From a virus: DNA of 16,550 nt. Below are positions 1 to 14,745 of this stretch, piece by piece; position 1 is the first letter of the stretch; each line of letters opens with the position of its first letter. Under the pieces are notes generated by a model, which saw only the letters and a program-made list of their open reading frames with translations, ran no database searches and was not told the origin of the DNA. The position numbers and the translations under genes are program-made. The stretch lies in UHGV virus genome UHGV-0152507. One strand, 5' to 3'.

Positions 1-53
1 TCGGTGGACCGTATTTCCTGTGGTTAATACTGCGTAGCCGGAGGGTGTCATGA
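1..53 (+). CDS. 3' end of upstream host gene, probably the hemin ABC permease (HmuU-like); only the last ~16 codons are in the window
   Basis: Open frame from window edge ends with TGA at 51..53, forming an ATGA overlap with the hmuV start at 50..52 (typical permease/ATPase coupling). Too short to identify by sequence. Confidence 0.4.
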
Positions 54-820
54 TCGTCGCTGAAAATCTGGTCTACCACATTCAGGAAAGACGACTGACC
101 GACGACGTTTCCCTGACGCTACCTGATGGAGAGATCATCGCGATTCTTGGCCCGAACGGAGCCGGGAAATCGACGCTGCTACGCCAGCTTACGGGATATC
201 TGCAGCCCCACAGTGGGCGTTGTAGCATGTTTGGCAAGCCGCTGGACAAGTGGTCAATCACCGAGCTGGCAAAAACCCGTGCCGTGATGCGCCAGAATAG
301 TCATATGGCCTTCCCGTTTAGCGTTCAGGAGGTCATTCGCATGGGCAGACATCCGTATCGGACGCGCAATACGGGCGATGAAACGGAGCACATCATGGCA
401 TTGTGTGATTGCCAGGCGCTGGCCGCACGCGATTACCGGCATCTGTCGGGAGGAGAACAACAGCGGGTACAGCTGGCGCGCCTGCTGGTTCAGCTTTGGG
501 AGCCCGAGCCTGGGCCGAAATGGCTGTTTCTTGATGAACCCACCTCCGCGCTGGATATTCACCACCAGCAGCACCTTTTTCGTCTGCTACGTCGTCTGGT
601 GCGTGAACGGCAGTTTAACGTCTGCTGCGTCCTGCACGATCTCAACCTCGCGGCGCGCTATGCCGACCGCGTGGTATTGATGGAGCGCGGCAGGATAGTT
701 GATAACGGATATCCGCAGGATGTCCTGAAGCAACGGTCGCTGAACGCGCTGTACGGTGCCGATCTCACGGTCATAAATGAACCGGAGCATCGAACGCCGA
801 TTATCGTCCTCAATCAATAA
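50..820 (+). CDS. hmuV: Hemin/haem ABC transporter ATP-binding protein (HmuV/ChuV family)
   Basis: 256-aa ORF with Walker [13 protein letters not shown] signature LSGGEQQRV and Walker [12 protein letters not shown]. Overall resembles enterobacterial HmuV/ChuV as recalled. SD GGAGGG upstream of ATG. Confidence 0.9.
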
Positions 821-973: not shown

Positions 974-1996
974 TTAACTAACCCGCAAAACCCCCGCATT
1001 GCCTCCAGAGTGTGGACGCAATGTGGACATTCCACTAAGGGGATTATAACTCACCGCATCCAGTAAATAGTCCGGCGCGAAGTGAGCATAGGTCATAGTT
1101 TGCGATATGTCGGAATGACCAAGAATTCGTTGTAACGCGATAATATTTCCGCCCTTAATCATGAAGTGCGTGGCGAACGTATGACGTAGCGCGTGCGCGG
1201 CTTGCCCATCTGGAAGATTGGGCTTTGCTTCTTTCATGCGCAGACGGAAGGTTTTATAGCTCACGCGGAACAGTCTTCCCGATTCCTGATGTTTCACTAT
1301 TTTTGCAATGTCGTCAGATATGGGGACCACACGCCGATCTCCGTTTTTAGTGATCGTAAACATCACCCTGTTACCGACAATGTTTTCCGCTTTAAGCTGG
1401 TAGGCTTCACCCCATCGAGCACCGGTAGCAAGCAGCAGAACGGCGATGCGGTAGTAATCACCTGAGCACAGGGATAGCAGCCGGTTTACTTCCGACTCAG
1501 TGAAATACGACATTTCCGTTTTTGGCTCTTTCAGCGCTGAAATTGCTGTTACCGGGTTTTCACCGTGAAACTCATCAATTTCGGCCATAGCTTTAAACAC
1601 ACCACTAAGTGCAAACAGGTCATGATTTATCGTTGAAGCCTTGATCCCTTGCTCCAGCCTATATGCCCGGTAATCAATAAGACATCGCGCATCAATCTGG
1701 TAAATCATGGGATCCCCCATATCGTGGCAAATACAGTTAACAGCACTAAGCCTGCGGTTTGCGTAGTTCTTATTCCGTCCGATTAACTGCCACCATAACG
1801 CGATAAATTCGCTTAGTTTTCGCTTATCAGCCGGTCTATTTAAAAAATCATGGTTCTGATACTTGGCAATAATGCTTCGCTCAAAAGCGTGCGCATCTGC
1901 CTTTCTCTCAAACTTCCGCCGAATGCGCTTTCCGTCGCGCCCGCGCGGCCTGACATCCACTTCATAGCGACCATCTTCGAGTTTCTTAACGGACAT
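974..1996 (-). CDS. int: Tyrosine integrase, P2 Int-like
   Basis: N-terminus MSVKKLEDGRYEVDVRPRGRDGKRIRRKF closely resembles P2 Int. C-terminal catalytic motifs HALRHTFATHF and LGHSDISQTMTYAHF (tyrosine nucleophile). Start chosen at ATG 1996 with SD GGAGGG 7 nt upstream, rather than the TTG at 2011 in the ORF track. Confidence 0.9.
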   Translation of the reverse strand: MSVKKLEDGRYEVDVRPRGRDGKRIRRKFERKADAHAFERSIIAKYQNHDFLNRPADKRKLSEFIALWWQLIGRNKNYANRRLSAVNCICHDMGDPMIYQIDARCLIDYRAYRLEQGIKASTINHDLFALSGVFKAMAEIDEFHGENPVTAISALKEPKTEMSYFTESEVNRLLSLCSGDYYRIAVLLLATGARWGEAYQLKAENIVGNRVMFTITKNGDRRVVPISDDIAKIVKHQESGRLFRVSYKTFRLRMKEAKPNLPDGQAAHALRHTFATHFMIKGGNIIALQRILGHSDISQTMTYAHFAPDYLLDAVSYNPLSGMSTLRPHSGGNAGVLRVS

Positions 1997-2065
1997 AAGA
2001 AAACCCTCCAACAGTCAGATCACTATCCTGGTAACAAATAGTGAAAATGTAATGTTTATATAATG

Positions 2066-2368
2066 TTAACCAGTCTTTTTCCCGGAGGGGTCTGATTGAA
2101 TTTCGTCTTGCCCATTGTGTGCGAGAGCCGGTGCTATTTGGCCTCGGCTCGGATCTGTACGGTCGTACATGAACCAATCCTGATACTTATGGAATCGGGG
2201 ATGACCAAAGAGTTTGATCGCAGCATCTAATGACATTTTTGATTTGCCTAATTCATATCCATTATAGGTTACGGGATTTACTCCAATTAAATCAGCAACT
2301 TGTTTCGATCTAAGTCTTTCAGAGTCTCTTATCAATTGAAGCTTTTCACTTTGGCACATTGACTTCAT
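2066..2368 (-). CDS. C: Immunity repressor, P2 C-like
   Basis: 100 aa. C-terminal half SRGQIAPALAHNGQDEIQSDPSGKKTG matches the P2 C tail (QIAPALAHFGQ...SGQKTG as recalled). N-terminal HTH region is similar. Lies upstream of and co-oriented with int, as in P2. Confidence 0.85.
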   Translation of the reverse strand: MKSMCQSEKLQLIRDSERLRSKQVADLIGVNPVTYNGYELGKSKMSLDAAIKLFGHPRFHKYQDWFMYDRTDPSRGQIAPALAHNGQDEIQSDPSGKKTG

Positions 2369-2487: not shown

Positions 2488-2949
2488 ATGAAAGAAATCC
2501 GAGAAAACGAATTAAATGCGAGATCTCAGTATTTACGTCAGTTTCCGTTAGATGGTGCTCGCGTCGCACGAATCTGCAAGATGACAGAAGCGCAAGCAAA
2601 CGCTATTCGCGATATGAACACCGACGAACTGCAAAAGCAGGTTTTCGTTACACCTGTTGAATTTGCATATCTGACGGGCCGGACTCTTAAGTCAGTACGT
2701 AACTTAATGGATCGTGCTCAGTTACCGGTCCACCGCGAAGGGATGCCGGGTTCCAAACGTCCTAAGCGTTTCATCATGCTGCAAGAGTATTGGGACGCCG
2801 TAGCACACTGCCGCGCACTAATTACCCCAGAAGAAAAGCACTACATCGATCGTCTGATGCGCGACAAGAAAACATATCGCCGCGTAACTGGTAACAATCA
2901 TCAGACGCATACGCGCACAAGCCGCAATTCAGCAAGGGCTGTCGCATGA
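2488..2949 (+). CDS. cox: Cox-like excisionase/early regulator with N- and C-terminal extensions
   Basis: Internal segment PVEFAYLTGRTLKSVRNLMDRAQLPV aligns with P2 Cox (EFAKLIGKSTGAVRRMIDKGKLPV as recalled). First gene of the rightward operon; strong SD GAAGGAG 7 nt before ATG 2488. At 153 aa it is longer than P2 Cox (91 aa); a later start at the in-frame ATG near 2581 is possible. Confidence 0.7.
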   Translation: MKEIRENELNARSQYLRQFPLDGARVARICKMTEAQANAIRDMNTDELQKQVFVTPVEFAYLTGRTLKSVRNLMDRAQLPVHREGMPGSKRPKRFIMLQEYWDAVAHCRALITPEEKHYIDRLMRDKKTYRRVTGNNHQTHTRTSRNSARAVA

Positions 2950-3404
2950 AAAACAGCAAATCAGTAAACGAACTTATTTCCGCTGTGAATGAGTTTTTGC
3001 GTAACAGCAACCCAGAGCGCTTGATCGATAATGGCATTCACGAAGCCTTATGCAACCTCGTTGATGCCGTAAGCCAGCAACAAGAAGAAATCGACTCCCT
3101 GCTGGAACGGCTGAATGCGCATAGCCCCGTTAATAGCGCGATAAAGGAAGAATCCGGTACTGTATTTCGCCGCCGCTATTACCGCAATGGTGTTCACGCG
3201 GGAAATGTTTATTTCCGAATTGAAGCGTTTGAAGGGATTAAAAGTTGGGCAGAAGAACTAAGGGCTGATTTTGAATCTTGTCTTAACGATTTTATTTCAC
3301 GACTTCACCCTGAACACCGTGCTTGCTTCGTTTCTACAGTAATAAGTCGCGCCCACAGTTTGACGTCGGAAGAGAAAGCGGAGTGGGAGCGACTTCAGAA
3401 GTAA
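2946..3404 (+). CDS. Hypothetical early protein carrying a portal-like FRRRYY-NG-HAG motif
   Basis: 152-aa ORF; ATG overlaps the cox stop (ATGA at 2946..2949). Contains TVFRRRYYRNGVHAGNVYF, which matches TIFRRRYYNNGAHMGFILY in this prophage's portal and the corresponding P2 Q segment as recalled. Confidence 0.7.
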   Translation: MKNSKSVNELISAVNEFLRNSNPERLIDNGIHEALCNLVDAVSQQQEEIDSLLERLNAHSPVNSAIKEESGTVFRRRYYRNGVHAGNVYFRIEAFEGIKSWAEELRADFESCLNDFISRLHPEHRACFVSTVISRAHSLTSEEKAEWERLQK

Positions 3405-3641: not shown

Positions 3642-3777
3642 TTTTTTCCTTTGCGTTGGTAAAAGTTATGCCTGATTCACCGCTCAACGTTTCACAGGCA
3701 TAGCGATGTTAGCACAGGAAACACGCGCCGGGCGTGGGGTTATATCCCGGCACTTTTTCAATTTGACGGAGATCAAC

Positions 3778-3999
3778 ATGGACTTAACACAATGCCCTTC
3801 ACTTGCCAGCCTGCTAACCCACGGCCAGCAGATCACCCACCGTCAGCATCAACGCGGCTGGATTGAAACCCCGGACGGGCGTTTCTTCCAGCCTAAAGCA
3901 GCAGATGTTCAATTTATTAAAAACTGCCGTTTACCGTTTATGTCGCGCCCGCGTAATAAGCGCCGCTGGTTTTCCCGCTTAATGGGTATCTTCGCGTAG
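3778..3999 (+). CDS. Hypothetical early protein (73 aa)
   Basis: ATG 3778 preceded by GGAG with a 6-nt spacer. The longer form from ATG 3706 lacks a convincing SD. No recognisable motif. Confidence 0.5.
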   Translation: MDLTQCPSLASLLTHGQQITHRQHQRGWIETPDGRFFQPKAADVQFIKNCRLPFMSRPRNKRRWFSRLMGIFA

Positions 4000-4014
4000 T
4001 TCGGGGAGGTGGTT

Positions 4015-4404
4015 ATGTTGATGGATAAGACAGGACAACAGCCAGGCCGCCGCCAGTTCTTAGAGCAACGGGCGCGGCTGCAAGCCAGTTTGAACGCCTC
4101 ACGCGTGAATGACACTGCAACCCGTTTTAACCGCCTGGATGATGCCTGCAAAAAGGTGATTTTCATCCTGGCAAACGATGCGTCCAGATACATAGCCGGA
4201 ATGCCGAAGCTGACCGCCAAACAGTTGGGTTGCACTTACGAAAATCTAACCGAAAAGGAGCAAACGTGCCTTTTGATGGGCATTAAGCGCCTTTCCGAAT
4301 TTGCAGCATCAATGCCGTGGGAATTTGAGGACTACGCCGCACCACGCGCCGAAATTCAGGCGATACGCGACAAACCACCCGCGCCAGATAACGCAGTCAA
4401 TTAA
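4015..4404 (+). CDS. Hypothetical early protein (~129 aa)
   Basis: ATG 4015 with SD GGAGGT 4 nt upstream (the ORF track starts at GTG 4009). Codon usage is like the neighbours. No motif recognised. Confidence 0.6.
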   Translation: MLMDKTGQQPGRRQFLEQRARLQASLNASRVNDTATRFNRLDDACKKVIFILANDASRYIAGMPKLTAKQLGCTYENLTEKEQTCLLMGIKRLSEFAASMPWEFEDYAAPRAEIQAIRDKPPAPDNAVN

Positions 4405-4474
4405 CAACTAACTACCCACAAAAAAGAAACAGGCGCTAACGCGTCGGGCTTCTTGCACCCTGGAGAAAGTAAAA

Positions 4475-5479
4475 ATGATTCGATCTCTCGTTAAATGGCC
4501 CGGTGGTAAAGGCCGCGTTATGCCTGATTTGCTGCCGATTCTGCCGAAAGCCGATTGCCTGGTGGAACCGTTTGTCGGCGGAGCTTCTGTTTTCCTCAAT
4601 ACTGAATATCGCCGTTATATCCTGGGTGATATCAACCCAGATTTAATTAACCTGTATCGCCAGATAACCCGCTGGCCTGATGCGGTGATCGACGCTGCTC
4701 GCCCGCTGTTTAAAGTGTACGGTGATAAAGACGGCTATAAGTGGATCCGCGACGATTTCAACGCCCGCGCCCATGACCTTCTGTCATCGCGCAATGTGTT
4801 TGAGGACGGACCGGACGCGGGCAAGATTCTTCGTGCAGCACAGTTTCTTTACCTGAACCGTCACGGATATAACGGCGTAGTGCGCTACAACCAACAGGGC
4901 GGATATAACGTTCCCTTTGGTAGACACAAAACCCCGCCTTACTTCCCGGAAGAACAGATCCGTTTATTCTCTGAAAAAGCTAACGACACGAAAGCTATTT
5001 TCGTGTGCTGCGATTTCCAGAGCACGTTAAAAATCATGATTGGTAGTGACGCGGTTATCTACTGCGATCCGCCATACCTGCCAGCAAGCGACACCGCTAA
5101 TTTCACCCAATACCACACCGCCCCGTTTGGCATTAAAGAGCATCGCCAGTTAGCTGCCGCCCTGCTGGATATTAACCGCCTTACTGGTTCGCCGGTGATC
5201 CTGTCCAATAGCGACACCCCATCTACCCGCGAGATTTATCGCGCTTTCAACTTCCAGGAAATCAGCGTTAACCGTTCTGTCAGCGCGAACGCCATTACCA
5301 GAGGGGCCGCCAGTGAAGTGATCGGCGTGCTGCCTGTCTGTGATGGCTGCGGGCGCTATGAAGGTGGTCACTGTGCGAAATGTTGCCCAGGTATCGCCGC
5401 ATGTGAGGAGGGATGGTCGTTTGATTGTCGAGGCAACTGCGATATTTGCGAGCCGTCCGATAACCCGGAAACGTGGTAA
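4475..5479 (+). CDS. dam: DNA adenine methyltransferase (Dam family) with a C-terminal Cys-rich extension
   Basis: AdoMet-binding motif EPFVGGASVF near the N-terminus and catalytic DPPY (CDPPYLP), with Dam-like sequence throughout. SD GGAGAAAG. The last ~50 codons (5330..5479) encode ten cysteines that are not part of a typical Dam. Confidence 0.9.
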   Translation: MIRSLVKWPGGKGRVMPDLLPILPKADCLVEPFVGGASVFLNTEYRRYILGDINPDLINLYRQITRWPDAVIDAARPLFKVYGDKDGYKWIRDDFNARAHDLLSSRNVFEDGPDAGKILRAAQFLYLNRHGYNGVVRYNQQGGYNVPFGRHKTPPYFPEEQIRLFSEKANDTKAIFVCCDFQSTLKIMIGSDAVIYCDPPYLPASDTANFTQYHTAPFGIKEHRQLAAALLDINRLTGSPVILSNSDTPSTREIYRAFNFQEISVNRSVSANAITRGAASEVIGVLPVCDGCGRYEGGHCAKCCPGIAACEEGWSFDCRGNCDICEPSDNPETW

Positions 5480-5495
5480 TAGCGAGGGATCTGCA

Positions 5496-6125
5496 ATGAG
5501 AAAAACACACGAATTAAAGATTTGGCCGGAGTTTTTTCAACCTGTTATGGACCGCGTGAAATACGCTGAATTGCGCCTAAATGATCGCGACTATAGCGCG
5601 GGCGACGTTTTGTTTTTGCGGGAGTTTTTACCCGCTAGCGGCAAATATTCGGGCAGCTATAACGTAGTAATAATATCTCATGTCGCTGATGTATCGGCGT
5701 TTATGCCGGGGTACGTCCTGCTTAGTTTCACTTCTTTCGTTACGCGCGGCGCTAACTGGCCTTTCCATAAGCCAACTACAGTGGAGGCTGCTGTAACTGC
5801 GGAAGATACTGGTTTTCTTTCGGCGCTTGTCGCCTGCGAGCCTCCCTGTAGCGTGATTCACCAAATGGCACGCCGACTGCTTGATGAACATCCATCGCTT
5901 CCAGTGTCCGAAAAATCTGATCTGTTGCCATGCCCCTTTTGCGGTGAAGCGGCTTTCTTTGACTCTATTTTTGATTACCAGTCAGAAACGCGTGTTTATG
6001 CCCCGTCTTGTACGGAGTGCTCATGCGAATTGATGGACGGCCCGATCATTAACAAATATGGGCGCGGTTGGTATGCCTCAAAGCAGGATGCCGCCGAAGC
6101 CTGGAATAAAAGGCGCTCGCAATGA
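5496..6125 (+). CDS. Two-domain protein: N-terminal DUF3850-like (ASCH/PUA-like) domain fused to a C-terminal Lar-family restriction-alleviation-like domain
   Basis: N-terminus MRKTHELKIWPEFFQPVMDRVKYAELRLNDRDYSAGDVLFLREF matches the DUF3850 hallmark as recalled. C-terminus LPCPFCGEAAFFD...SCTECSC...AAEAWNKRR matches the Lar-family pattern (CPFCG ... C-x2-C ... AWNRR). SD GAGGGA before ATG 5496. Stop overlaps the next start (ATGA at 6122..6125). Confidence 0.8.
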   Translation: MRKTHELKIWPEFFQPVMDRVKYAELRLNDRDYSAGDVLFLREFLPASGKYSGSYNVVIISHVADVSAFMPGYVLLSFTSFVTRGANWPFHKPTTVEAAVTAEDTGFLSALVACEPPCSVIHQMARRLLDEHPSLPVSEKSDLLPCPFCGEAAFFDSIFDYQSETRVYAPSCTECSCELMDGPIINKYGRGWYASKQDAAEAWNKRRSQ

Positions 6126-7126
6126 CTGCCTATTACAACGAAATCGATCCATATGCAGCACAGTGGCTGCGCAACCTCATTGATGCCGGGCATATTGCGC
6201 CAGGCATTGTTGATACCCGTTCAATTGAGGATGTAACCCCCAATGACCTTAAAGGCTTTACTCAATGTCACTTCTTTGCCGGGATCGGTGTGTGGTCATA
6301 TGCCCTGCGTCTTGTGGGCTGGCCGGACGACAAACCGATCTGGACTGGATCCTGCCCATGCCAGCCTTTCAGCCCGGCAGGCAAAGCAACTGGGTTTGAT
6401 GACGAGCGGCACTTATGGCCCGCCTTTCATTGGCTCATTGCTCAGTGCCGCCCTGTCGTTGTCGCTGGCGAGCAATCTGGAAGCGCTAACGCGAACGTCT
6501 GGCTCGACCTTGTACAAACTGACATGGAAAGCCTGGGCTATGCCTTCGGGGCGGTCGCGTTTCCGTCTGCGAGCGTCGGTGCGCCACACATCTGGGACAG
6601 AGCTTACTGGGTGGCCGACACCAACGGCGAGCGCATGGAAACACCCTGGAAACCAGGGGAGGCAGGGAGGCTTGAATTTGCAAACGGCCACAGCATTAGC
6701 TGGGTGGCCGACACCAACAACGCAGAGCAACAACCAAATCTCAGGAGTTGGAGCTGCTGCAGATCACCCGAAGCGCGGGACAACTTTGGGCGGGGCTGCT
6801 CAGCTGTCGGGGTGGCCGACACCAGCTTCAAGGGACGGCAAGGGGGGGTATCAGGGCGGGAGGATACGCAACGGGAAGCTGTCGACGGACACGCTGGATG
6901 TGACGGCGCAAATTGCGGGACCGGTCCGGTTAACGGTTTCTGGCGATCTGCTGACTGGCTGTATTGCCGGGATGGAAACTGGAGGCCAGTTAAACCCGGA
7001 CTTAAGCCGCTGGTTGATGGGGTTACCGGACGAGTGGGAAAAATCCGCGCCTACGGAAACGCTATCAACGTTGAAGCTGCAACAGCGTTCATAAAGGCTT
7101 ATATGATGGGGGCGTCAAATGTCTGA
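6122..7126 (+). CDS. Dcm-like DNA cytosine-5 methyltransferase, apparently frame-disrupted or frame-variable
   Basis: Annotated frame has FFAGIGVW (motif I-like), catalytic PCQ at 6356..6364, RPVVVAGEQ (motif VI-like), LESLGY, GAPHIWDRAYWVA (motif VIII-like) and YGNAINVEAATAFI (motif X, 7052..7093). The motif IX-like LNPDLSRWLMGLPDEW is only in the overlapping +1 frame (6990..7037). Confidence 0.7.
   Translation: MTAYYNEIDPYAAQWLRNLIDAGHIAPGIVDTRSIEDVTPNDLKGFTQCHFFAGIGVWSYALRLVGWPDDKPIWTGSCPCQPFSPAGKATGFDDERHLWPAFHWLIAQCRPVVVAGEQSGSANANVWLDLVQTDMESLGYAFGAVAFPSASVGAPHIWDRAYWVADTNGERMETPWKPGEAGRLEFANGHSISWVADTNNAEQQPNLRSWSCCRSPEARDNFGRGCSAVGVADTSFKGRQGGVSGREDTQREAVDGHAGCDGANCGTGPVNGFWRSADWLYCRDGNWRPVKPGLKPLVDGVTGRVGKIRAYGNAINVEAATAFIKAYMMGASNV
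6607..6826. repeat. Three copies of a 19-nt element inside the methyltransferase gene
   Basis: CTGGGTGGCCGACACCAAC at 6607..6625 and 6700..6718; CGGGGTGGCCGACACCAGC at 6808..6826. They encode GWPTP in the +1 frame and (W/G)VADT in the annotated frame. Confidence 0.7.
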
Positions 7127-9737
7127 CGCCGCCTTTGCATGGCCCTGGAACGCGCCGCGCCCAGCTGTTGGCCTGTACACCTACGAACCGAAAAAAATCG
7201 CCCCGCTTGCCGGGGCGGTGGCGCATCATCCTGCCGTAAAAAAACACATCGATCACATATTCAAACGCGCCGGTTACAACCCTGACGACGTTCGCGACCG
7301 TGACGCGCTGATCCAGACGCTGGACAGGTACGAACCGTGCGGCCTGCCACTGGCCGCCCAACAAAATATCATCCGGCAGGAAAGTGCAGCCGCGAAAGCT
7401 GCGGCGGCCGCCTGGGCCAATACGCCGGAAGGTGTCGAAGCGCGTTTGTTGTCTGAGCCGTTCTTCATCCGCGAAGTCTGGCGCAAAAAAATTGAATGGT
7501 TACGGGCCAACCGTGAAACCAGACACACCAATGATTTTCTTATGGGGACCGTGAAAAAATCATTGCTGCGTCTTGATGTTGTGCGCACAAGGCAAGGTGT
7601 TTCGCCTGATATCACCGGCGAACTGGCCGCGTACTGGTTCGGGCGCTGGCAACGGCTGGCTGATTTCACAAAGCGGGAAGCCCTAAGCGCCGCTAATGAG
7701 ATCGCCAGCCGCATGGCTGAAATGCTGGGGACGGAATGCGAAGCCTTGGGACGAAATGTTTCAGACATGAACGTCGAAGAACTGGACTGGCTTTATTGCC
7801 ACCTGGGCCGTGAAATGCTGGCGCTTCGCATTGTGCCGCCTGCATGGTATGCGCCGTGGGAACGCGAGCGCATATGCACGGCCATTTTGCGTATGGCTTC
7901 GCCTGACTGGTGGGGGCGCAAAATCTGGCGCTTGCGTTGTGACTGGCGCGAAAACCAGCTGCGTGCTGTTGGCGCGGTAAATAAAAAAGCGCATCCGTAT
8001 ATCAGTGCATCAAGCCTGATGGAATGGCAGGAACAGCGACGTAAAAACCGTAATTTCTTCAAAAGTCATGAACTGGTAGACGAAGACGGCAACGTTTCGT
8101 CGCTTGAGGACATGATTAACAAATCCACGTCTAACCCTGCAATTCGTCGTCATGAGCTTATGGCCCGTATGGCTGGCGTGGAGCTTGTCGCCCAGAGTCG
8201 TGGCGATGTTGGCATCTTCCTGACCATCACTTGCCCGTCGAAATATCACGGCAATATTGCGTCCGGCCACCATAACGCAAAATGGAACTACGACACGGTT
8301 GCACAGGCGCAACGCTATTTATGCCGCGTATGGAACCGGGCAACCGCCAAACTGAAACGCGAAGATTTGCGCCCTTACGGCTTCCGCGTCGCCGAGCCGC
8401 ATCACGACGGAACGCCACACTGGCACGCCCTGCTATTTATGCCGCAGGCAGAAGTTAAAGCCACGGTAGCGATTTTGCGTGATTACTTTGTCAAAGAGGA
8501 CCGCGCCGAACTGGGGCGTAATACCGGTGCTCGCTTCAAGTCCAAAAAAATGGACCCACGGAAAGGGTCAGCAACGGCGTATATCGCGAAATACATTTCG
8601 AAGAATATCGACGGCCATGCGCTGGCCGGTGAACTGGACGACGAAAGCGGCAAGCCGCTGAATGAAACAGCCAAATATGCAATGGCCTGGGCATCACTTC
8701 ACCGCATCCGTCAGTTTCAGCCCATCGGACAGCCGCCCATATCGGTTTACCGCGAGCTGCGCAAACTGAGCAATCAGATCACGACGCGCCAGAAAATTGA
8801 CAATACCTTCAAGCGCGGTGCGCCGTTGCTTGTGGATCCTGCTATGGATGCGGTTTGCGCCGCTGCGGATGTCGGGTGCTTTGCTACCTACATCATCCGC
8901 CAGGGTGGTGTTTTGATCCCGCGAGAAAACTATGTCGTCCGTCTGGCCTATCAGCCAGCTGATGAAATGAATGCTTATTGTGAGATCCCCGAAAAGGTAT
9001 TCGGGGTCTGGTCGCCACGTCTGGGGGATGCCTCCCGCATTTGCACCCGTCTGGTTAAGTGGAAAATCCGCGCCAAATCCAAAGCCACCACCGGGGCCAA
9101 AAACGGCCCCGGTTTGGGGGTTGACCTTTTGCCGTCGCCAACCGGCGACGCTTGGAGTTCTGTCAATAACTCTACGGAAGACGAAAAAATCACCGATTTT
9201 TCGCCTGATGTGGAAGGGGTGACAGGAGGAGCAGAAGGGGAAATCGGCGATGTTGAAAACATGGACCAACCGACACGGCGAAAATTGATGCGGCGACTAC
9301 GTGAAACACCATTCAAAAGGCAGCAAAACGGATCACCTTATGAGCCAGGCAGCGAATTAGATGTCGCCTGGCGTTCTGCCGTGGAAAAAACCGAGGCCAG
9401 ATCGGCGGCAGAAAAGGCCAAACGGGCGGCGCTTGCCCCTGCTGTTGCCAGCCTGCTGGCAGATGCGGCGTTGTATTCGGTTGAGATTTCAGAGATTCAG
9501 GCCGTTTCGCTGTTAATGGGGAGTTGTCTGGAGATTGGCGGCAAAGTTTATCGGGCCAGTGCTGACGGCCAGTTGATAACGCGTCAATTACCCGACGAGT
9601 CACGGACGGTGAATAAATTATGGGAACGTCTGCGGGATAACCACGGCATAGATGCCACGCGCCTGCGGTTCGACCCTGCGGGCGAATACGCAAAGATGTT
9701 AACGAAAGCAATTAATTGCGCTGACAAAAAGGGGTGA
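7119..9737 (+). CDS. A: Rolling-circle replication initiator endonuclease, P2 gene A-like
   Basis: 872 aa. HUH-type motif GTPHWHALLF and paired-tyrosine motif YIAKYISKN (compare phiX174 gpA YVAKYVNK). N-terminal AWPWNAPRPAVG resembles P2 A. Position after the early accessory genes is as in P2. Confidence 0.9.
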   Translation: MSDAAFAWPWNAPRPAVGLYTYEPKKIAPLAGAVAHHPAVKKHIDHIFKRAGYNPDDVRDRDALIQTLDRYEPCGLPLAAQQNIIRQESAAAKAAAAAWANTPEGVEARLLSEPFFIREVWRKKIEWLRANRETRHTNDFLMGTVKKSLLRLDVVRTRQGVSPDITGELAAYWFGRWQRLADFTKREALSAANEIASRMAEMLGTECEALGRNVSDMNVEELDWLYCHLGREMLALRIVPPAWYAPWERERICTAILRMASPDWWGRKIWRLRCDWRENQLRAVGAVNKKAHPYISASSLMEWQEQRRKNRNFFKSHELVDEDGNVSSLEDMINKSTSNPAIRRHELMARMAGVELVAQSRGDVGIFLTITCPSKYHGNIASGHHNAKWNYDTVAQAQRYLCRVWNRATAKLKREDLRPYGFRVAEPHHDGTPHWHALLFMPQAEVKATVAILRDYFVKEDRAELGRNTGARFKSKKMDPRKGSATAYIAKYISKNIDGHALAGELDDESGKPLNETAKYAMAWASLHRIRQFQPIGQPPISVYRELRKLSNQITTRQKIDNTFKRGAPLLVDPAMDAVCAAADVGCFATYIIRQGGVLIPRENYVVRLAYQPADEMNAYCEIPEKVFGVWSPRLGDASRICTRLVKWKIRAKSKATTGAKNGPGLGVDLLPSPTGDAWSSVNNSTEDEKITDFSPDVEGVTGGAEGEIGDVENMDQPTRRKLMRRLRETPFKRQQNGSPYEPGSELDVAWRSAVEKTEARSAAEKAKRAALAPAVASLLADAALYSVEISEIQAVSLLMGSCLEIGGKVYRASADGQLITRQLPDESRTVNKLWERLRDNHGIDATRLRFDPAGEYAKMLTKAINCADKKG

Positions 9738-10331: not shown

Positions 10332-10658
10332 TTATGCCGTCTGACCGTTGAGCAGGTCCAGCGCGAATTGACGTTCTTCGGGCTTGAGCCGGTCAATCAG
10401 AAATTTAACCAGCTTGTTGCCGGTCAGCCCGCTGGGGCTGAGGGTATGTGAAAACTCAACGCTATAAACAAATGTATGACCACATTCCACTTCCGTGCAG
10501 CCACAGTATAAAGACGCCAGTTTTTTATCTTTCCAGTCAGATTTACGAATGATGGCCGGTGAGCCGCATTCAGGACATTTAATTTTAAAAACTCGCATGT
10601 TCACCATCCCGCACGCCATTGCTAACAATGGGGATGATTTTAACTTAACTGCGCTCAT
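10332..10658 (-). CDS. Ogr/Delta-family zinc-finger protein (putative late-gene transcription activator)
   Basis: CPEC ... CGCTEVECGHTF matches the Ogr pattern CPLC ... CQNVNCSATF, with similar spacing. ATG at 10658 overlaps the portal stop (ATGA). An alternative start at ATG 10598 (MRVFKIKCPEC) would give an Ogr-sized N-terminus. Confidence 0.7.
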   Translation of the reverse strand: MSAVKLKSSPLLAMACGMVNMRVFKIKCPECGSPAIIRKSDWKDKKLASLYCGCTEVECGHTFVYSVEFSHTLSPSGLTGNKLVKFLIDRLKPEERQFALDLLNGQTA

Positions 10659-11716
10659 TTTTCGCCCTTTTCGACGGTGATTGCCGGGATATCTACATCA
10701 AAATGCAGGTGCAAATGTGGGGGGATCTCCGGGTCATTGTTGACGCCGTTCATTAGCTTGCGCTGCAACGGGATAACTTCATCCTTGCGATAGGTTGTGC
10801 GGGCGGTTTCAGGGTTGCCCATTACCGCGCCATTGGTCGGGATGATACCGGCCAGCCCTGCGGGGAAACGGTGAGCGGTAAAGATATCCTGCGCGGTGAT
10901 CCCTTTGATGTTGGCAAATTCATCCTTTGCGCTGACTTCGCCCACTGGCATGATTTTAACCCCTTCCGGGTCGCCCTTCGGGATGTTGATAAACATATTG
11001 CGGAAGTTACCCAGCCCTTTGGACTGGGCGATCTTCTCTTTGATTTCGTTTTCCATTTCCAGCGTCAGATTCGGATCGCTGGTATAGAGAATAAAGCCCA
11101 TATGCGCCCCGTTATTGTAGTAACGGCGCCGGAAGATGGTTGCCTCACTGTTGAGTAACACCGAATGGATGCCGCCGATATAGTCAGGCAGGCCATATAC
11201 CTGCTGGCGCGGGTCGTACATTTTAAAGAAAACGATGTCTTCCGGGTCATAGATAAGCGCTGGCCCTTCCTGCAAAACAGCAAACGAGCCGTCTTTCCGG
11301 CAGCGCAGGTACAGCGACGGCAGCGGCAGCAGGTCGATCACTTCCCCGAATACGTTACGAATTTTCAGGATAGCGACGTCACCAAACAGCAGGTAATCAA
11401 AGACAGCCTGTTCGACCTGGTCAGGCGTCAGGCCGCCGCCAATATAGCCACCGGCCACCATATTGCGCCGCGCATACAGCACCCCACCATGCTGGCCGTT
11501 AAGGTTCGGCAACTGGGCCAGCGCCAGGCGATCAATCGGGAGTCGCCAGTGGTCATATTCATTGTCATACCAGATATTGTGATAATCCGTGCCGGTCGTC
11601 AGGATGGGTTCGGGTTCGCCAAATGTGATCACGCTTCCGCGCCCTGGCGTGAAGGTTTCAACCTTGCTGCCGGTCATGGACCTGAATTTTTTATTATTAC
11701 GCTGTTTCTTTGTCAT
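10655..11716 (-). CDS. Q: Portal protein, P2 Q-like
   Basis: 353 aa. Segments LPDYIGGIHSVLLNSEATIFRRRYYNNGAHMGFILY and KGLGNFRNMFINIP resemble P2 Q (LPEYLSALNSAWLNESATLFRRKYYENGAHAGYIMY, KGRGNFKNLFLYAP as recalled). Confidence 0.9.
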   Translation of the reverse strand: MTKKQRNNKKFRSMTGSKVETFTPGRGSVITFGEPEPILTTGTDYHNIWYDNEYDHWRLPIDRLALAQLPNLNGQHGGVLYARRNMVAGGYIGGGLTPDQVEQAVFDYLLFGDVAILKIRNVFGEVIDLLPLPSLYLRCRKDGSFAVLQEGPALIYDPEDIVFFKMYDPRQQVYGLPDYIGGIHSVLLNSEATIFRRRYYNNGAHMGFILYTSDPNLTLEMENEIKEKIAQSKGLGNFRNMFINIPKGDPEGVKIMPVGEVSAKDEFANIKGITAQDIFTAHRFPAGLAGIIPTNGAVMGNPETARTTYRKDEVIPLQRKLMNGVNNDPEIPPHLHLHFDVDIPAITVEKGEK

Positions 11717-13524
11717 GCTGCTTTCCCAAAGTACCAGCCCGATGGGCGGTCATATTCGTGATCGATAGGTTCGTTAATTACGGCGTGCGAGATAGCGAAG
11801 AAAACATCTGCATGGCCGGTCGCGTCTGAACGTTCAGCAACAAACGTCAGCGCGTTGCCGCTGTTGGTTGTCGTGCGCCGGATAGCCATAAAGCTGGCCG
11901 GAATTTCGACGCGCTCTTTGTTCGTTTCGTCTACGGCGTCTTTTGCCCATTCGATGCGCTTACGCTCGACAACGTCGATCATCTTCATTACCAGACGGTT
12001 TTTGCTTTCGACGCTGTAAAGAATCGGTGTGGCTTCGCGTGGTGCAAACTTGCTGACCAGGTCATAAACGCCCTTACCTATGCCGGTTGTATCGATCCCG
12101 ATGTAAGTGATGTTAAAGCGGCGCATAAGTTGCTTTATCTGGTCGGCCTGCCAGCTGAAGTTAAAGCCCTGCCATTGCCAGACGGCCAGCACGCGGAAGC
12201 GCTCGCCGTCCTCTATGGGGGGCGCGATTAACACAAAAGTGGAGTTGTCGCCGGATCGTGACGGGTCAAAGCCTGCCCATACTTCGCGATTGCCGAAGGG
12301 CCGCGCAGCAGTCAGATCAAAGTCGCCCCATGTGGCCCGGTCCACTTCGCAACCGACAAGCGCGGAGAACTTGAACACCGCGTCCTTGCTGTCAACAAAC
12401 TGGCACATGTAGAGCATGGCAAACGCGGTCGGGCTGTATTTGTTGCGCAGTCGTTCAATATCGACAAGCGCCCCGAGGCCGCCTTCGATGGCGTCTTCCA
12501 TTGTGATGATATAGCGCCAGATCTGGTCCGGGCAGAGAATGCCCTGGCGCATTTCGCTTTCTTTCGGGAACGTCACACCTTTGCGTTTCGGGTCGTCCCC
12601 GCGCCAGGCTTCGCCAGTCCAGACCGGGTAAGCCTGGTGCGTTTTCGCGCTGGGCGTCGAAAAGTAGGTCGTGCGGTATTTGTTGTGCGTCGCCATTGCG
12701 CTGGCAACTTCGTGCAGGCGCGTGAATTTCGGGATCCAGAAAACCTCATCACCATACAGGTGGCCGTTAAAGCCCTGCGCGGTGCTGGCGTTCGTGGACA
12801 AAAAGCGCAGTATTGCGCCGTTGCTGAGGCGGATATTTTTACCCGTCAGCGTCACGCCGAAATGGTTCTGAGCGATCTGGACGATGTATTCACGGAAGAT
12901 TTCAGACTGGGAGCGGCTTGCAGAGAAAAAGACCTGGTTATCACCGGTAATGACAGCATCTTCGAATGCCTCCCAGGCGAAATAATAGGTCATGCCGACC
13001 TGTCGGCTTTTCAGAATGAAGCGCCAGTCTTCGCCTTTATGTTCGCGGCAGTGCAGCTGGTACTCGAAGAGATGTTCCCGCGCCCAGGTGTCGAGCATTT
13101 CCGCTGTAATACCGGAAACGTCGTTTTTCTTATACCGGCGCTTTCTTTCCCCTGGTTCCCCGCCTGCGCTGCTGAGGCAGTACCCTTCACCATCATAAGC
13201 CGCTTTCTGGGCCTGAATTTCTGCCAGCTTTTCGGCGTGCTTGTTGCGCTGCGCCATGAGTTTCACATGGTGAGCAATCAGATCGCGCAGTTCCTCCAGT
13301 TCCAGCGCTGTTTTTTTCTCGCGGCGGGAGAGCTGGTCGATACGGCGGGCGATGACATTTTCCACCGATTCAACAGGCAGCAGTGATGCCCACTTCCCGA
13401 CGTCAGCCCAGTGGTAAATTGTACGCGGTGGAATATTCAGTTCCTGCGCAATATCTTTCGGCGTCCAGCTTTTTATATAAAGCGTGCGGGCCGCTTCTTT
13501 TAATTCATCGGAATATTTAGCCAT
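11713..13524 (-). CDS. P: Terminase large (ATPase) subunit, P2 P-like
   Basis: 603 aa, upstream of and overlapping Q (ATGA), as in the P2 Q-P operon. N-terminal HTH-like region and terminase ATPase-like body. Call rests mainly on size and conserved gene order. Confidence 0.85.
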   Translation of the reverse strand: MAKYSDELKEAARTLYIKSWTPKDIAQELNIPPRTIYHWADVGKWASLLPVESVENVIARRIDQLSRREKKTALELEELRDLIAHHVKLMAQRNKHAEKLAEIQAQKAAYDGEGYCLSSAGGEPGERKRRYKKNDVSGITAEMLDTWAREHLFEYQLHCREHKGEDWRFILKSRQVGMTYYFAWEAFEDAVITGDNQVFFSASRSQSEIFREYIVQIAQNHFGVTLTGKNIRLSNGAILRFLSTNASTAQGFNGHLYGDEVFWIPKFTRLHEVASAMATHNKYRTTYFSTPSAKTHQAYPVWTGEAWRGDDPKRKGVTFPKESEMRQGILCPDQIWRYIITMEDAIEGGLGALVDIERLRNKYSPTAFAMLYMCQFVDSKDAVFKFSALVGCEVDRATWGDFDLTAARPFGNREVWAGFDPSRSGDNSTFVLIAPPIEDGERFRVLAVWQWQGFNFSWQADQIKQLMRRFNITYIGIDTTGIGKGVYDLVSKFAPREATPILYSVESKNRLVMKMIDVVERKRIEWAKDAVDETNKERVEIPASFMAIRRTTTNSGNALTFVAERSDATGHADVFFAISHAVINEPIDHEYDRPSGWYFGKAA

Positions 13525-13701
13525 GCGGCTATTATGGCGGGATTATTTGGCGGAATTGATAATTAAATATCGGTAAAAGGTGGTTAACCATTTATAACCG
13601 AATGCATAAGAAATAAAGCGGTCGCGCTGTTTTAACCAATTCGCAATACTGACCACCACGAACGAATCATTGTTATTTAAATTCATTATTAAAGGTCAGT
13701 T
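13525..13701. promoter_or_regulatory. Divergent late promoter region between P (leftward) and O (rightward)
   Basis: 177-bp AT-rich intergenic region between divergent late operons, as in P2. Contains the palindrome TGGTTAACCA (13581..13590) and a second TTAACCA (13632..13638). No exact TGT-N12-ACA dyad found by eye. Confidence 0.5.
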
Positions 13702-14745
13702 ATGCCGCAATCTCATTACCGCACGGATTGGCTATGTATTGCCACATCTGGACAGGCTGTGGACGGTCGCACCATTGAACCGCAATGGTTGATTGATGCG
13801 GCAGAAACCTACTCCCGCAAAACCTACACCGCCATGATTTGGCCGCACCACCCGCAATACGATATCAGTGAGCGTGAATTTACCTGCAACCTGGGGGAAG
13901 TGGACGCGCTGAAAGTGGAAACGGAAGGTGACGTCACGAAGTTATATGCCCAGTTAATCCCGAATCAATTTTTAATTGATGCCAACCGTATGGGGCAAAA
14001 GTTATTTACGTCAGCCGAGTTTGTCACTGATTTTGCAGGAAGCGGTCGTGAATATCTTTTCGGGCTGGCCGTGACTGATATTCCGGCAAGTCTGGGAACG
14101 GAAAAACTTAAATTCGTTTTAGCCGGTGAAGAAAAGGACGCCGAGCGCGGGAGTCTGGAAACATTCAGTTTAGGAAAATTACAGACAAGTTCTTTCTGGT
14201 CGCGTTTATTTTCGGACCGCAAAGATTTTACGCCAACCCCAGAGCCAAACACTGACAAGCCCACCGAGGGCGACGGAGAAAAAATGGAAGAATTAAAAGC
14301 GCTCATTCAGCAAATGCTGGATCTGCTTAAAAGCGGTAAAGACGCCGCAACGGGTGACGCCGACACGGTTGATACACCGGAACAGGCCGCCGATGTGGTG
14401 GCAGATGTTGCCGCCCAGATCGCTGATGCTGCCGACGAGGTGGCCGAGCTGGCGCAGGACGTTATCGAAAACCCGGAAGACGAAGTCAAAGCGGAAGAAT
14501 TCAGCGCTGCCAAAGCTAACCTGGCAAAAGTCATGAAGTCATTCAATGTGACGCCAGCGAAGCGCCCACGCGCCAGCCGCCGCCGTGACTTTTCCGCCAG
14601 TCGCCAGCCAGCTGGCAACCAGATGGACAACCTTACCACGCAGCTGACTACCGTCCTGACCAAGTTGTCAGCGATGGAAAACGGCAATACGCGCCGCCCT
14701 GGCAGTGCGCCAGGCGGAAGCAAAGAACCGTTTGAGTTTATTTAA
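13702..14745 (+). CDS. O: Capsid scaffolding protein, P2 O-like
   Basis: LFGLAVTDIPASLGTEKLKF matches P2 O (LVGLAVTDDPASLGTE as recalled). Acidic, coiled-coil-like C-terminal half. First gene of the rightward late operon. Confidence 0.85.
   Translation: MPQSHYRTDWLCIATSGQAVDGRTIEPQWLIDAAETYSRKTYTAMIWPHHPQYDISEREFTCNLGEVDALKVETEGDVTKLYAQLIPNQFLIDANRMGQKLFTSAEFVTDFAGSGREYLFGLAVTDIPASLGTEKLKFVLAGEEKDAERGSLETFSLGKLQTSSFWSRLFSDRKDFTPTPEPNTDKPTEGDGEKMEELKALIQQMLDLLKSGKDAATGDADTVDTPEQAADVVADVAAQIADAADEVAELAQDVIENPEDEVKAEEFSAAKANLAKVMKSFNVTPAKRPRASRRRDFSASRQPAGNQMDNLTTQLTTVLTKLSAMENGNTRRPGSAPGGSKEPFEFI

Follow-up and report, generated by a model that had tools for sequence, protein, structure and literature searches.

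A cysteine-rich and exchangeable C-terminal tail on the Dam methyltransferase of a P2/186-like prophage

The stretch of viral DNA analyzed here, 16,550 nucleotides of the UHGV virus genome UHGV-0152507 and referred to as the window throughout, makes up the left portion of a P2/186-like prophage, and its early operon contains a gene for a Dam methyltransferase together with Fil, Lar, Dcm, gpA and Ogr. Past its catalytic domain this enzyme continues into a tail of 49 residues that is rich in cysteine. Comparison with related loci indicates that the tail is a genuine, selected and lineage-restricted C-terminal module and not a product of read-through, and that it represents one allele, here termed type A, of a hypervariable cassette that is swapped between phages by recombination. 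We consider it probable that the tail consists of a small scaffold that binds zinc and displays an acidic docking peptide with an aromatic end. The features of the gene are as follows.

4475-5479 (+): complete gene for a Dam-family N6-adenine DNA methyltransferase, tail and first stop codon included (open reading frame list, Pfam, NCBIfam, PDB, AlphaFold)
4475-5329 (+): catalytic Dam core, residues 1-285, closing with the conserved strand E-V-I-G-V (alignment to residues 5-266 of E. coli Dam)
5325-5498 (+): exchangeable tail cassette, comprising also the stop codons and the spacer TAATAGCGAGGGATCTGCAATG (junction sequences; breakpoints in blastn comparisons with 12 related loci)
5339-5383 (+): first cysteine knuckle pair, C4-x2-C7-x7-C15-x2-C18 with His14, common to most tail alleles (CxxCGRxGGGxCPDCG)
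5384-5449 (+): second, allele-specific cysteine cluster C19, C25, C33, C37 and C40 around the invariant CEEGWSFDC, invariant in all aligned type-A tails
5450-5476 (+): acidic C-terminal tip EPSDNPETW with an aromatic last residue; type-A variants end in SDNPETW, DNGEPF or DNGENF
5477-5482 (+): tandem stop codons TAA TAG (sequence)

The open reading frame (ORF) at 4475-5479 (+) yields a product of 334 amino acids, and independent gene callers arrived at the same product on four public contigs. Pfam family PF02086 covers residues 8-268 (E 2.8e-57, 194.8 bits against a cut-off of 22), the 258 bits obtained with TIGR00571 exceed the cut-off of 114.85, and by sequence the protein matches E. coli Dam in the PDB (2g1p, E 6e-63, residues 3-284). 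A full-length AlphaFold model based on an alignment of 94 sequences reached a mean predicted local distance difference test (pLDDT) score of 81.8, with values mostly above 85 in the core, and its comparison with the E. coli Dam structures 4rtk and 2g1p gave E values of 1e-26 to 3e-27 at target-normalised template modelling (TM) scores of 0.90-0.92. The original prediction had described a normal Dam domain with both DPPY and FxGxG. The former is present as motif IV, C-D-P-P-Y-L in residues 197-202, with D198, P199, P200 and Y201 invariant in 94 homologues, but the AdoMet-binding motif I is not a strict FxGxG, as it reads F33-V-G35-G-A37 (window positions 4571-4585) with an alanine in place of the last glycine. 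Note that F33 and G35 do not vary within the family and that FVGGA aligns with FVGAG of E. coli Dam. At the end of the core, residues E281, V282 and I283 are likewise invariant in the 94 homologues. With the NCBIfam equivalog NF008152, which represents the housekeeping Dam, the protein scored 257.7 bits and stayed below the cut-off of 441, and it is therefore taken to be a paralogue belonging to the phage rather than the housekeeping enzyme. By family and fold we predict an ordinary phage Dam of the D12 class (alpha-group), whose catalytic core shares this class and the DPPY motif with E. coli Dam, DpnM and T4 Dam and whose predicted fold matches that of E. coli Dam (TM 0.9). Those three solved enzymes, with 278, 284 and 259 residues, respectively, end near residue 285 of the enzyme in the window, and none of them aligned past this point.

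The last 49 residues, LPVCDGCGRYEGGHCAKCCPGIAACEEGWSFDCRGNCDICEPSDNPETW, are encoded by nucleotides 5330-5476, and this in-frame continuation past the Dam domain translates exactly as it had been quoted. The count of ten cysteines given with it needs correction, as the tail in the window holds nine cysteines and one histidine, and ten cysteines are found only in relatives such as SEN4 and SEN5. Both cysteine codons are indeed in use, TGT five times and TGC four times. With four cysteines in the 285-residue core, the enrichment in the tail corresponds to a binomial P of about 3e-8. The residues between successive cysteines number 2, 7, 2, 0, 5, 7, 3 and 2. Tail position 34 is an arginine in the window, a cysteine in SEN4 and SEN5 and a tyrosine in the viral contig L009, and because of this variation it is not regarded as a conserved ligand.

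The tail was judged to be real because it is conserved, not because its frame is open; a run of 49 open codons alone has a chance probability of about 0.1 and is unremarkable. A type-A tail closes the Dam ORF in the Salmonella phages SEN4 and SEN5, in two E. coli genomes and in Citrobacter meridianamericanus, and further in six IMG/VR contigs, four metagenome contigs and eleven protein-database clusters. It is rare, SEN4 and SEN5 being its only carriers in 50,697 phage records; of 5,426 E. coli genomes at least 2 have it, and of 185,579 species genomes 1. Across the carriers the identity of the tails is 78-100%, whereas that among the Dam cores is only 52-62%, and 32 of the 49 tail positions are invariant, including the nine cysteines, His14 and the block CEEGWSFDC. 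Against SEN5, the nucleotide identity is 91% in the tail versus 62-69% in the core, where the synonymous substitution rate (dS) is saturated, and this difference indicates that the tail DNA goes back to a younger common ancestor than the cores do. For the tail itself, dS amounts to 0.43 and the non-synonymous rate (dN) to 0.026, and the resulting dN/dS of about 0.06 shows that purifying selection acts on the tail in the reading frame of Dam. The view that this is a real appendage and no off-frame artefact is thus borne out, and the proposed comparison with Dam homologues showed that in every carrier the tail closes the Dam ORF at its 3' end.

The main challenge to this conclusion would be an artefactual or recent read-through fusion, in which a lost stop codon or a frameshift joins Dam to non-coding DNA or to a small gene without any selected function. 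Some close homologues do end earlier (E. coli 2011C-4251 with 296 amino acids, and P0071, P0074, P0077 and P0087 with 277-280), fifty open codons are not rare by chance, and other Dam homologues seem to bear fused foreign N-termini, namely the tails with W-x-G-F-D-P-A described below. We nevertheless regard read-through as highly improbable, as the tail is kept on at least three unrelated core lineages under the constraint given above, the short E. coli form differs by a deletion or replacement of 1.8 kb and by no point change, and the remaining two frames are rich in stops or bear no relation to other types of tail. Nor did a stand-alone homologue emerge from 1.84e9 representative proteins or from three contig collections. 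The suggestion that a separate small protein had become attached through loss of a stop codon is not supported. None of the 17 tail-carrying loci examined (L002, L004 and L007-L021) contains a free-standing ORF for the type-A tail, and a profile of 8 type-A tails, run against the same 1.84 billion proteins, found no separate or otherwise attached relative. Two long repeat proteins returned by this profile were rejected as unrelated, compositional matches, and a search with the last 85 residues of Dam returned only 5 partial Dam fragments. We also considered type A as a frame-shifted version of another allele and rejected this, the other frames of the tails from the window, SI7 and phiT5282H being stop-rich and unrelated.

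The edges of the conserved region point to cassette exchange. The left edge lies inside the gene at 5325-5358, in the region of EVIGVL and the first CxxCGR, and the right edge at 5498/5499 coincides with the start codon of the next gene. Salmonella phage SI7 is 98% identical in nucleotide sequence to about base 5355 and then continues into a different tail of 42 residues, CSGCGRAGGGRCPDCGPVMGNATYNEMLATAAAYGVEPF. In E. coli 2011C-4251 an identity of 96% ends at base 5325; no tail follows, and gpA comes directly after. In nineteen E. coli prophages an identity of 96.5% up to base 5325 likewise gives way to gpA, a difference of 1.8 kb that goes along with a Dam of 296 amino acids. The point change or indel in close tail-less homologues that would betray an artefactual fusion was not found; SI7 and 2011C-4251 diverge completely past the breakpoint, and the short Dam forms are deletion or replacement variants. 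The spacer TAATAGCGAGGGATCYGCMATG and the tandem stops come with the type-A cassette and are followed by varying genes, by DUF3850-Lar and Dcm in the window and L007, by Dcm alone in SEN5, L009 and L012, and directly by gpA in L008, L010 and L011. A link of tail type to the downstream gene was therefore rejected, as the same tail precedes DUF3850-Lar, Dcm or gpA, and tail type depends neither on the gene that follows nor on the phage backbone. Comparison of the segment from Dam to gpA (window 5477-7119) with L002, L004, L008, L010 and L011 identifies it as a probable cassette zone. An exchange of the type-A cassette would involve two crossovers, one at the conserved strand EVIGVL and one where the next gene starts.

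In order to place type A among other tails, we listed the C-termini of the best 120 of about 6,729 Dam homologues, almost all of which have 300-335 residues and extend past the invariant strand EVIGVL. Class B, with 57 members, shows CxxCGRxGGGxCPDCGP followed by ..GDATYNEM.., class A, the type found in the window, has 11 members, and class C, with ..CAGYS..DSDVLPGYWESEENPIPL, has 10. A further 19 tails contain at least 4 cysteines, 16 are low in cysteine and 7 homologues are essentially tail-less. At least 4 cysteines or a CxxC...CxxC core are present in 97 of the 120 listed homologues, and the opening knuckle pair CxxCGRxGGGxCPDCG is common to the 57 tails of class B, the 10 of class C and the 11 of class A. 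The alleles of SI7, Enterobacter phage phiT5282H and Klebsiella prophage CP052639 resemble type A in that EVIGVL is followed by a first CxxCGRxGGGxCxxC pair and that the end is acidic with F, L or W. They differ in having 4-7 cysteines and then a short helix-like segment (..MGDATYNEM..EAF) or GYWESEENPIPL, whereas type A instead has a second, five-cysteine cluster, CCPGIAACEEGWSFDCxGNCxxC. As a separate observation, a motif W-x-G-[FVL]-D-[PLM]-A..G.D.S recurs in low-cysteine tails (P0101, P0108, P0110, P0111, P0113, P0116, P0056, P0103, P0105, P0014, P0017, P0095 and P0100). These look like the N-terminus of another protein that has been fused on, and fusions may thus be favoured quite generally at the EVIGVL junction.

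The cysteine pattern raises the question of metal binding. CxxC-x7-CxxC is a classic zinc-knuckle arrangement, and the tail has two CxxC knuckles with a short spacer, as in zinc ribbon and Cys4 zinc knuckle modules. As a cytoplasmic enzyme cannot rely on disulfides, metal binding by the CxxC knuckles is plausible. The CxxC-x7-CxxC pair common to most alleles would most likely hold one zinc ion, and the five further invariant cysteines and one histidine that are specific to type A may form a second metal site, either for zinc, for a multinuclear zinc cluster or for Fe-S. The original prediction had named a zinc ribbon or a knottin; the knuckle pattern is compatible with the former, although no curated zinc family was matched, and a knottin is unlikely, as the Dam domain starts at residue 3-8 of a cytoplasmic enzyme and leaves no room for a signal peptide. 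A Foldseek search with the tail model returned no fold match (best E 4.1). Ogr/Delta (PF04606) and Lar (PF14354) are Cys4 knuckle-type modules of P2-like phages and both are encoded in the window, but the tail matched neither profile up to E 10. In the full-length model, pLDDT in the tail is 82 for residues 291-300, 65 for residues 301-310 and below 50 beyond, and a model of the tail alone (22 sequences) reached 54.

Nine invariant cysteines and one histidine exceed the need of two tetrahedral zinc sites, and this surplus would suit an iron-sulfur or multinuclear metal cluster ([4Fe-4S] or Zn3Cys9-type) that would sense redox state or metal and thereby switch the methylase. A ferredoxin (E 3) is indeed among the weak sequence matches in the PDB. 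We think such a cluster quite unlikely, however, because the spacing C-2-C-7-C-2-C-0-C-5-C-7-C-3-C-2-C does not fit CxxCxxCxxxCP, the motif of ferredoxin-type [4Fe-4S] clusters (an argument that bears on this kind of Fe-S site), because the PDB matches are not significant and because most sister alleles have only 4-6 cysteines in plain CxxC pairs. The only PDB matches, a designed peptide at E 0.36 and the ferredoxin at CDICEP and CxxC segments, were rejected as chance.

Accessory modules that steer a DNA methyltransferase have precedents, as the PIP box and the CXXC domain of DNMT1 control where that enzyme acts. The C-terminal domain of CcrM, which binds DNA non-specifically (PMC6787082), is a further case, and the Dam tail would likewise be an accessory C-terminal or zinc module of this kind; note, however, that neither CcrM nor DNMT1 has a sequence or fold relationship to it, and that the CcrM domain is basic and DNA-binding whereas the tail is acidic. 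By analogy to CcrM, the tail could be a DNA-binding zinc finger that raises processivity or alters site preference. CxxC...CxxC knuckles are common as DNA-binding modules, and the first knuckle pair is modelled beside the core with moderate confidence, but the net charge of -6 with only 3 basic residues in 49 makes binding of DNA unlikely, the other tail alleles range from neutral to -8, and a distal part this variable does not sit easily with a conserved DNA substrate. The charge argues instead for docking to a protein or for self-regulation, and it remains our best guess that the tail targets or regulates the methylase, as had originally been suggested.

We propose that the short acidic, aromatic-ended peptide is the working end of the tail, which would dock the methylase onto a protein partner or fold back onto the enzyme's own DNA groove. 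Of the 111 tails of more than 20 residues among the 120 listed homologues, 49 end in F, 16 in L and 10 in W (75 of 111), compared with a core baseline of 5.5% for F and 0.6% for W; these sequences are related to each other, so that the enrichment is no formal probability, one of several points that weigh against a docking peptide on a zinc scaffold. The residue directly ahead of the last one is acidic in 76 of these tails, the final 12 residues have a mean net charge of -1.8, and the pattern recurs on distal segments that cannot be aligned with each other. Such an acidic, aromatic-ended tip, kept on otherwise unrelated tails, suggests a docking peptide. Overlap with the next start codon was considered as a cause of the terminal Phe or Trp and rejected, as the junctions (TAATAG...ATG here and TTCTGATG in SI7) leave the last sense codon free. 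A motif for binding the beta clamp, which is of the QL[SD]LF type, was rejected by inspection of the tail ends, where the Gln or Leu pattern is missing.

Known tails of similar build provide the analogy on which this assignment draws. The tails of T7 gp2.5 and gp4 are acidic and Phe-terminated, and tails of the SSB type bind to partner pockets or to the DNA cleft of their own protein. In SSB the C-terminal hexapeptide DDDIPF is a conserved docking motif (PMC5872125). Like these, the Dam tails have a flexible end on which an acidic run finishes in an aromatic or hydrophobic residue, and a close likeness to DDDIPF is seen in class C (WESEENPIPL) and in some type-A tails (DNGEPF). The tip in the window, E-P-S-D-N-P-E-T-W, is acidic and Trp-ended but without I-P-F, while sister alleles end in ENPIPL, NGEPF or VEPF. 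Unlike in SSB, the tip sits on a methylase and not on a protein that binds single-stranded DNA, and binding to a pocket is suggested by analogy.

The remaining points against a zinc scaffold with a docking tip concern both of its parts. The likeness of the tip to the SSB C-terminus (SDNPETW versus DDDIPF) is loose. E. coli Dam is active without a tail, and together with the several tail-less prophage homologues this implies that the module is dispensable for catalysis. The identity of tails on divergent cores could for the most part reflect recent transfer, although the low dN/dS argues for constraint as well. The tail has no match in Pfam, NCBIfam or PHROGs even at E 10, no PDB structure matches it by sequence (best E 0.36), and the low confidence of the tail models provides no geometry in support of the zinc sites.

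The tip might also serve as a turnover or control element, either as a degron or as a DNA mimic with an autoinhibitory effect, and so restrain the activity of a Dam enzyme whose over-expression is potentially mutagenic. The distal tail has low predicted order, and a hydrophobic last residue is kept from allele to allele. Lon controls how much CcrM is present, and in SSB and T7 gp2.5 the acidic tail binds to the DNA cleft of its own protein. As a degron requires neither 9 invariant cysteines nor 32 invariant positions, we consider this unlikely for the tail as a whole; the tip by itself may act as a degron or autoinhibitor, though this leaves the cysteine scaffold unexplained.

Returning to a zinc scaffold with a docking tip, a bolder version holds that the tails of P2-like Dam enzymes are recruitment adaptors, whose tip resembles the SSB C-terminus and plugs the methylase into the host replisome or into a pocket of the SSB interactome, for instance at sites of the chi, PriA or RecQ type. 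We attach a small but not negligible probability to this version. If it were true, nascent phage DNA would be methylated at the fork, in a bacterial-virus counterpart to the recruitment of DNMT1 by PCNA, the diversity of cassettes would reflect an arms race with host factors, and type A would add an unusual metal cluster of nine cysteines and one histidine. Recruitment to a replication or host factor would also explain why phages of Dam-positive hosts carry a Dam of their own, and it would add a new short docking motif to the repertoire of phage-host interactions. The position of the gene in the early operon, next to replication gene A and among genes for restriction alleviation and DNA modification, would fit prompt methylation of phage DNA.

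The appendage is new in that none of the databases and literature searched describes it, while the enzyme itself is of a known kind. Literature searches for a cysteine-rich or zinc tail on P2-like phage Dam retrieved nothing relevant, and five other tail alleles gave nothing significant in Pfam, NCBIfam and PHROGs. The cassette would thereby define a small domain with at least three alleles that is undescribed in Pfam, NCBIfam, PHROGs and the PDB, and as a selected, exchangeable module it offers a concrete handle on the targeting or control of P2-like Dam enzymes.

The other genes in the window are listed below.

50-820 (+): ABC-transporter ATPase gene of the host (flank)
974-2011 (-): integrase
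2066-2368 (-): helix-turn-helix repressor
3706-3999 (+): Fil-like gene
5496-6125 (+): fusion of DUF3850 and Lar (restriction alleviation), PF12961 E 7e-17 and PF14354 E 1.3e-10
6122-7126 (+): C5-cytosine methylase-like gene, PF00145 E 3.4e-10, partial; relatives are annotated as DNA cytosine methyltransferase
7119-9737 (+): replication endonuclease of the P2 gpA type, PF05840 E 1.4e-105
10332-10658 (-): Ogr/Delta zinc finger
10655-14745 (both strands): portal (-), terminase (-) and scaffold (+) genes

Upstream of Dam, the two adjacent early-operon ORFs at 2488-2949 and 2946-3404 (+), with 153 and 152 amino acids, belong to no Pfam family, and the first has a faint Cox match in precomputed data. 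At the equivalent of 2488-3404, phage SI7 has a plain Cox of 90 amino acids; over about 3793-5355 this phage is 98% identical to the window. The ORF at 4009-4404 (+), just upstream of Dam and encoding 131 (or 129) amino acids, has no family match and is kept in SI7 and the E. coli prophages. In the Dcm-like ORF at 6122-7126 (+), PF00145 matches only residues 73-175, the C-terminal two thirds are without a family match, and an ORF of 283 amino acids (6243-7094) lies wholly inside it in another frame. In the fused product of 5496-6125 (+), DUF3850 occupies residues 4-78 and Lar residues 142-206. E. coli SWYHX138 (L004, 3420-3906) has DUF3850 as a stand-alone ORF of 93 amino acids followed by a separate ORF of 73 amino acids, and the fusion in the window may be a distinct anti-restriction protein.

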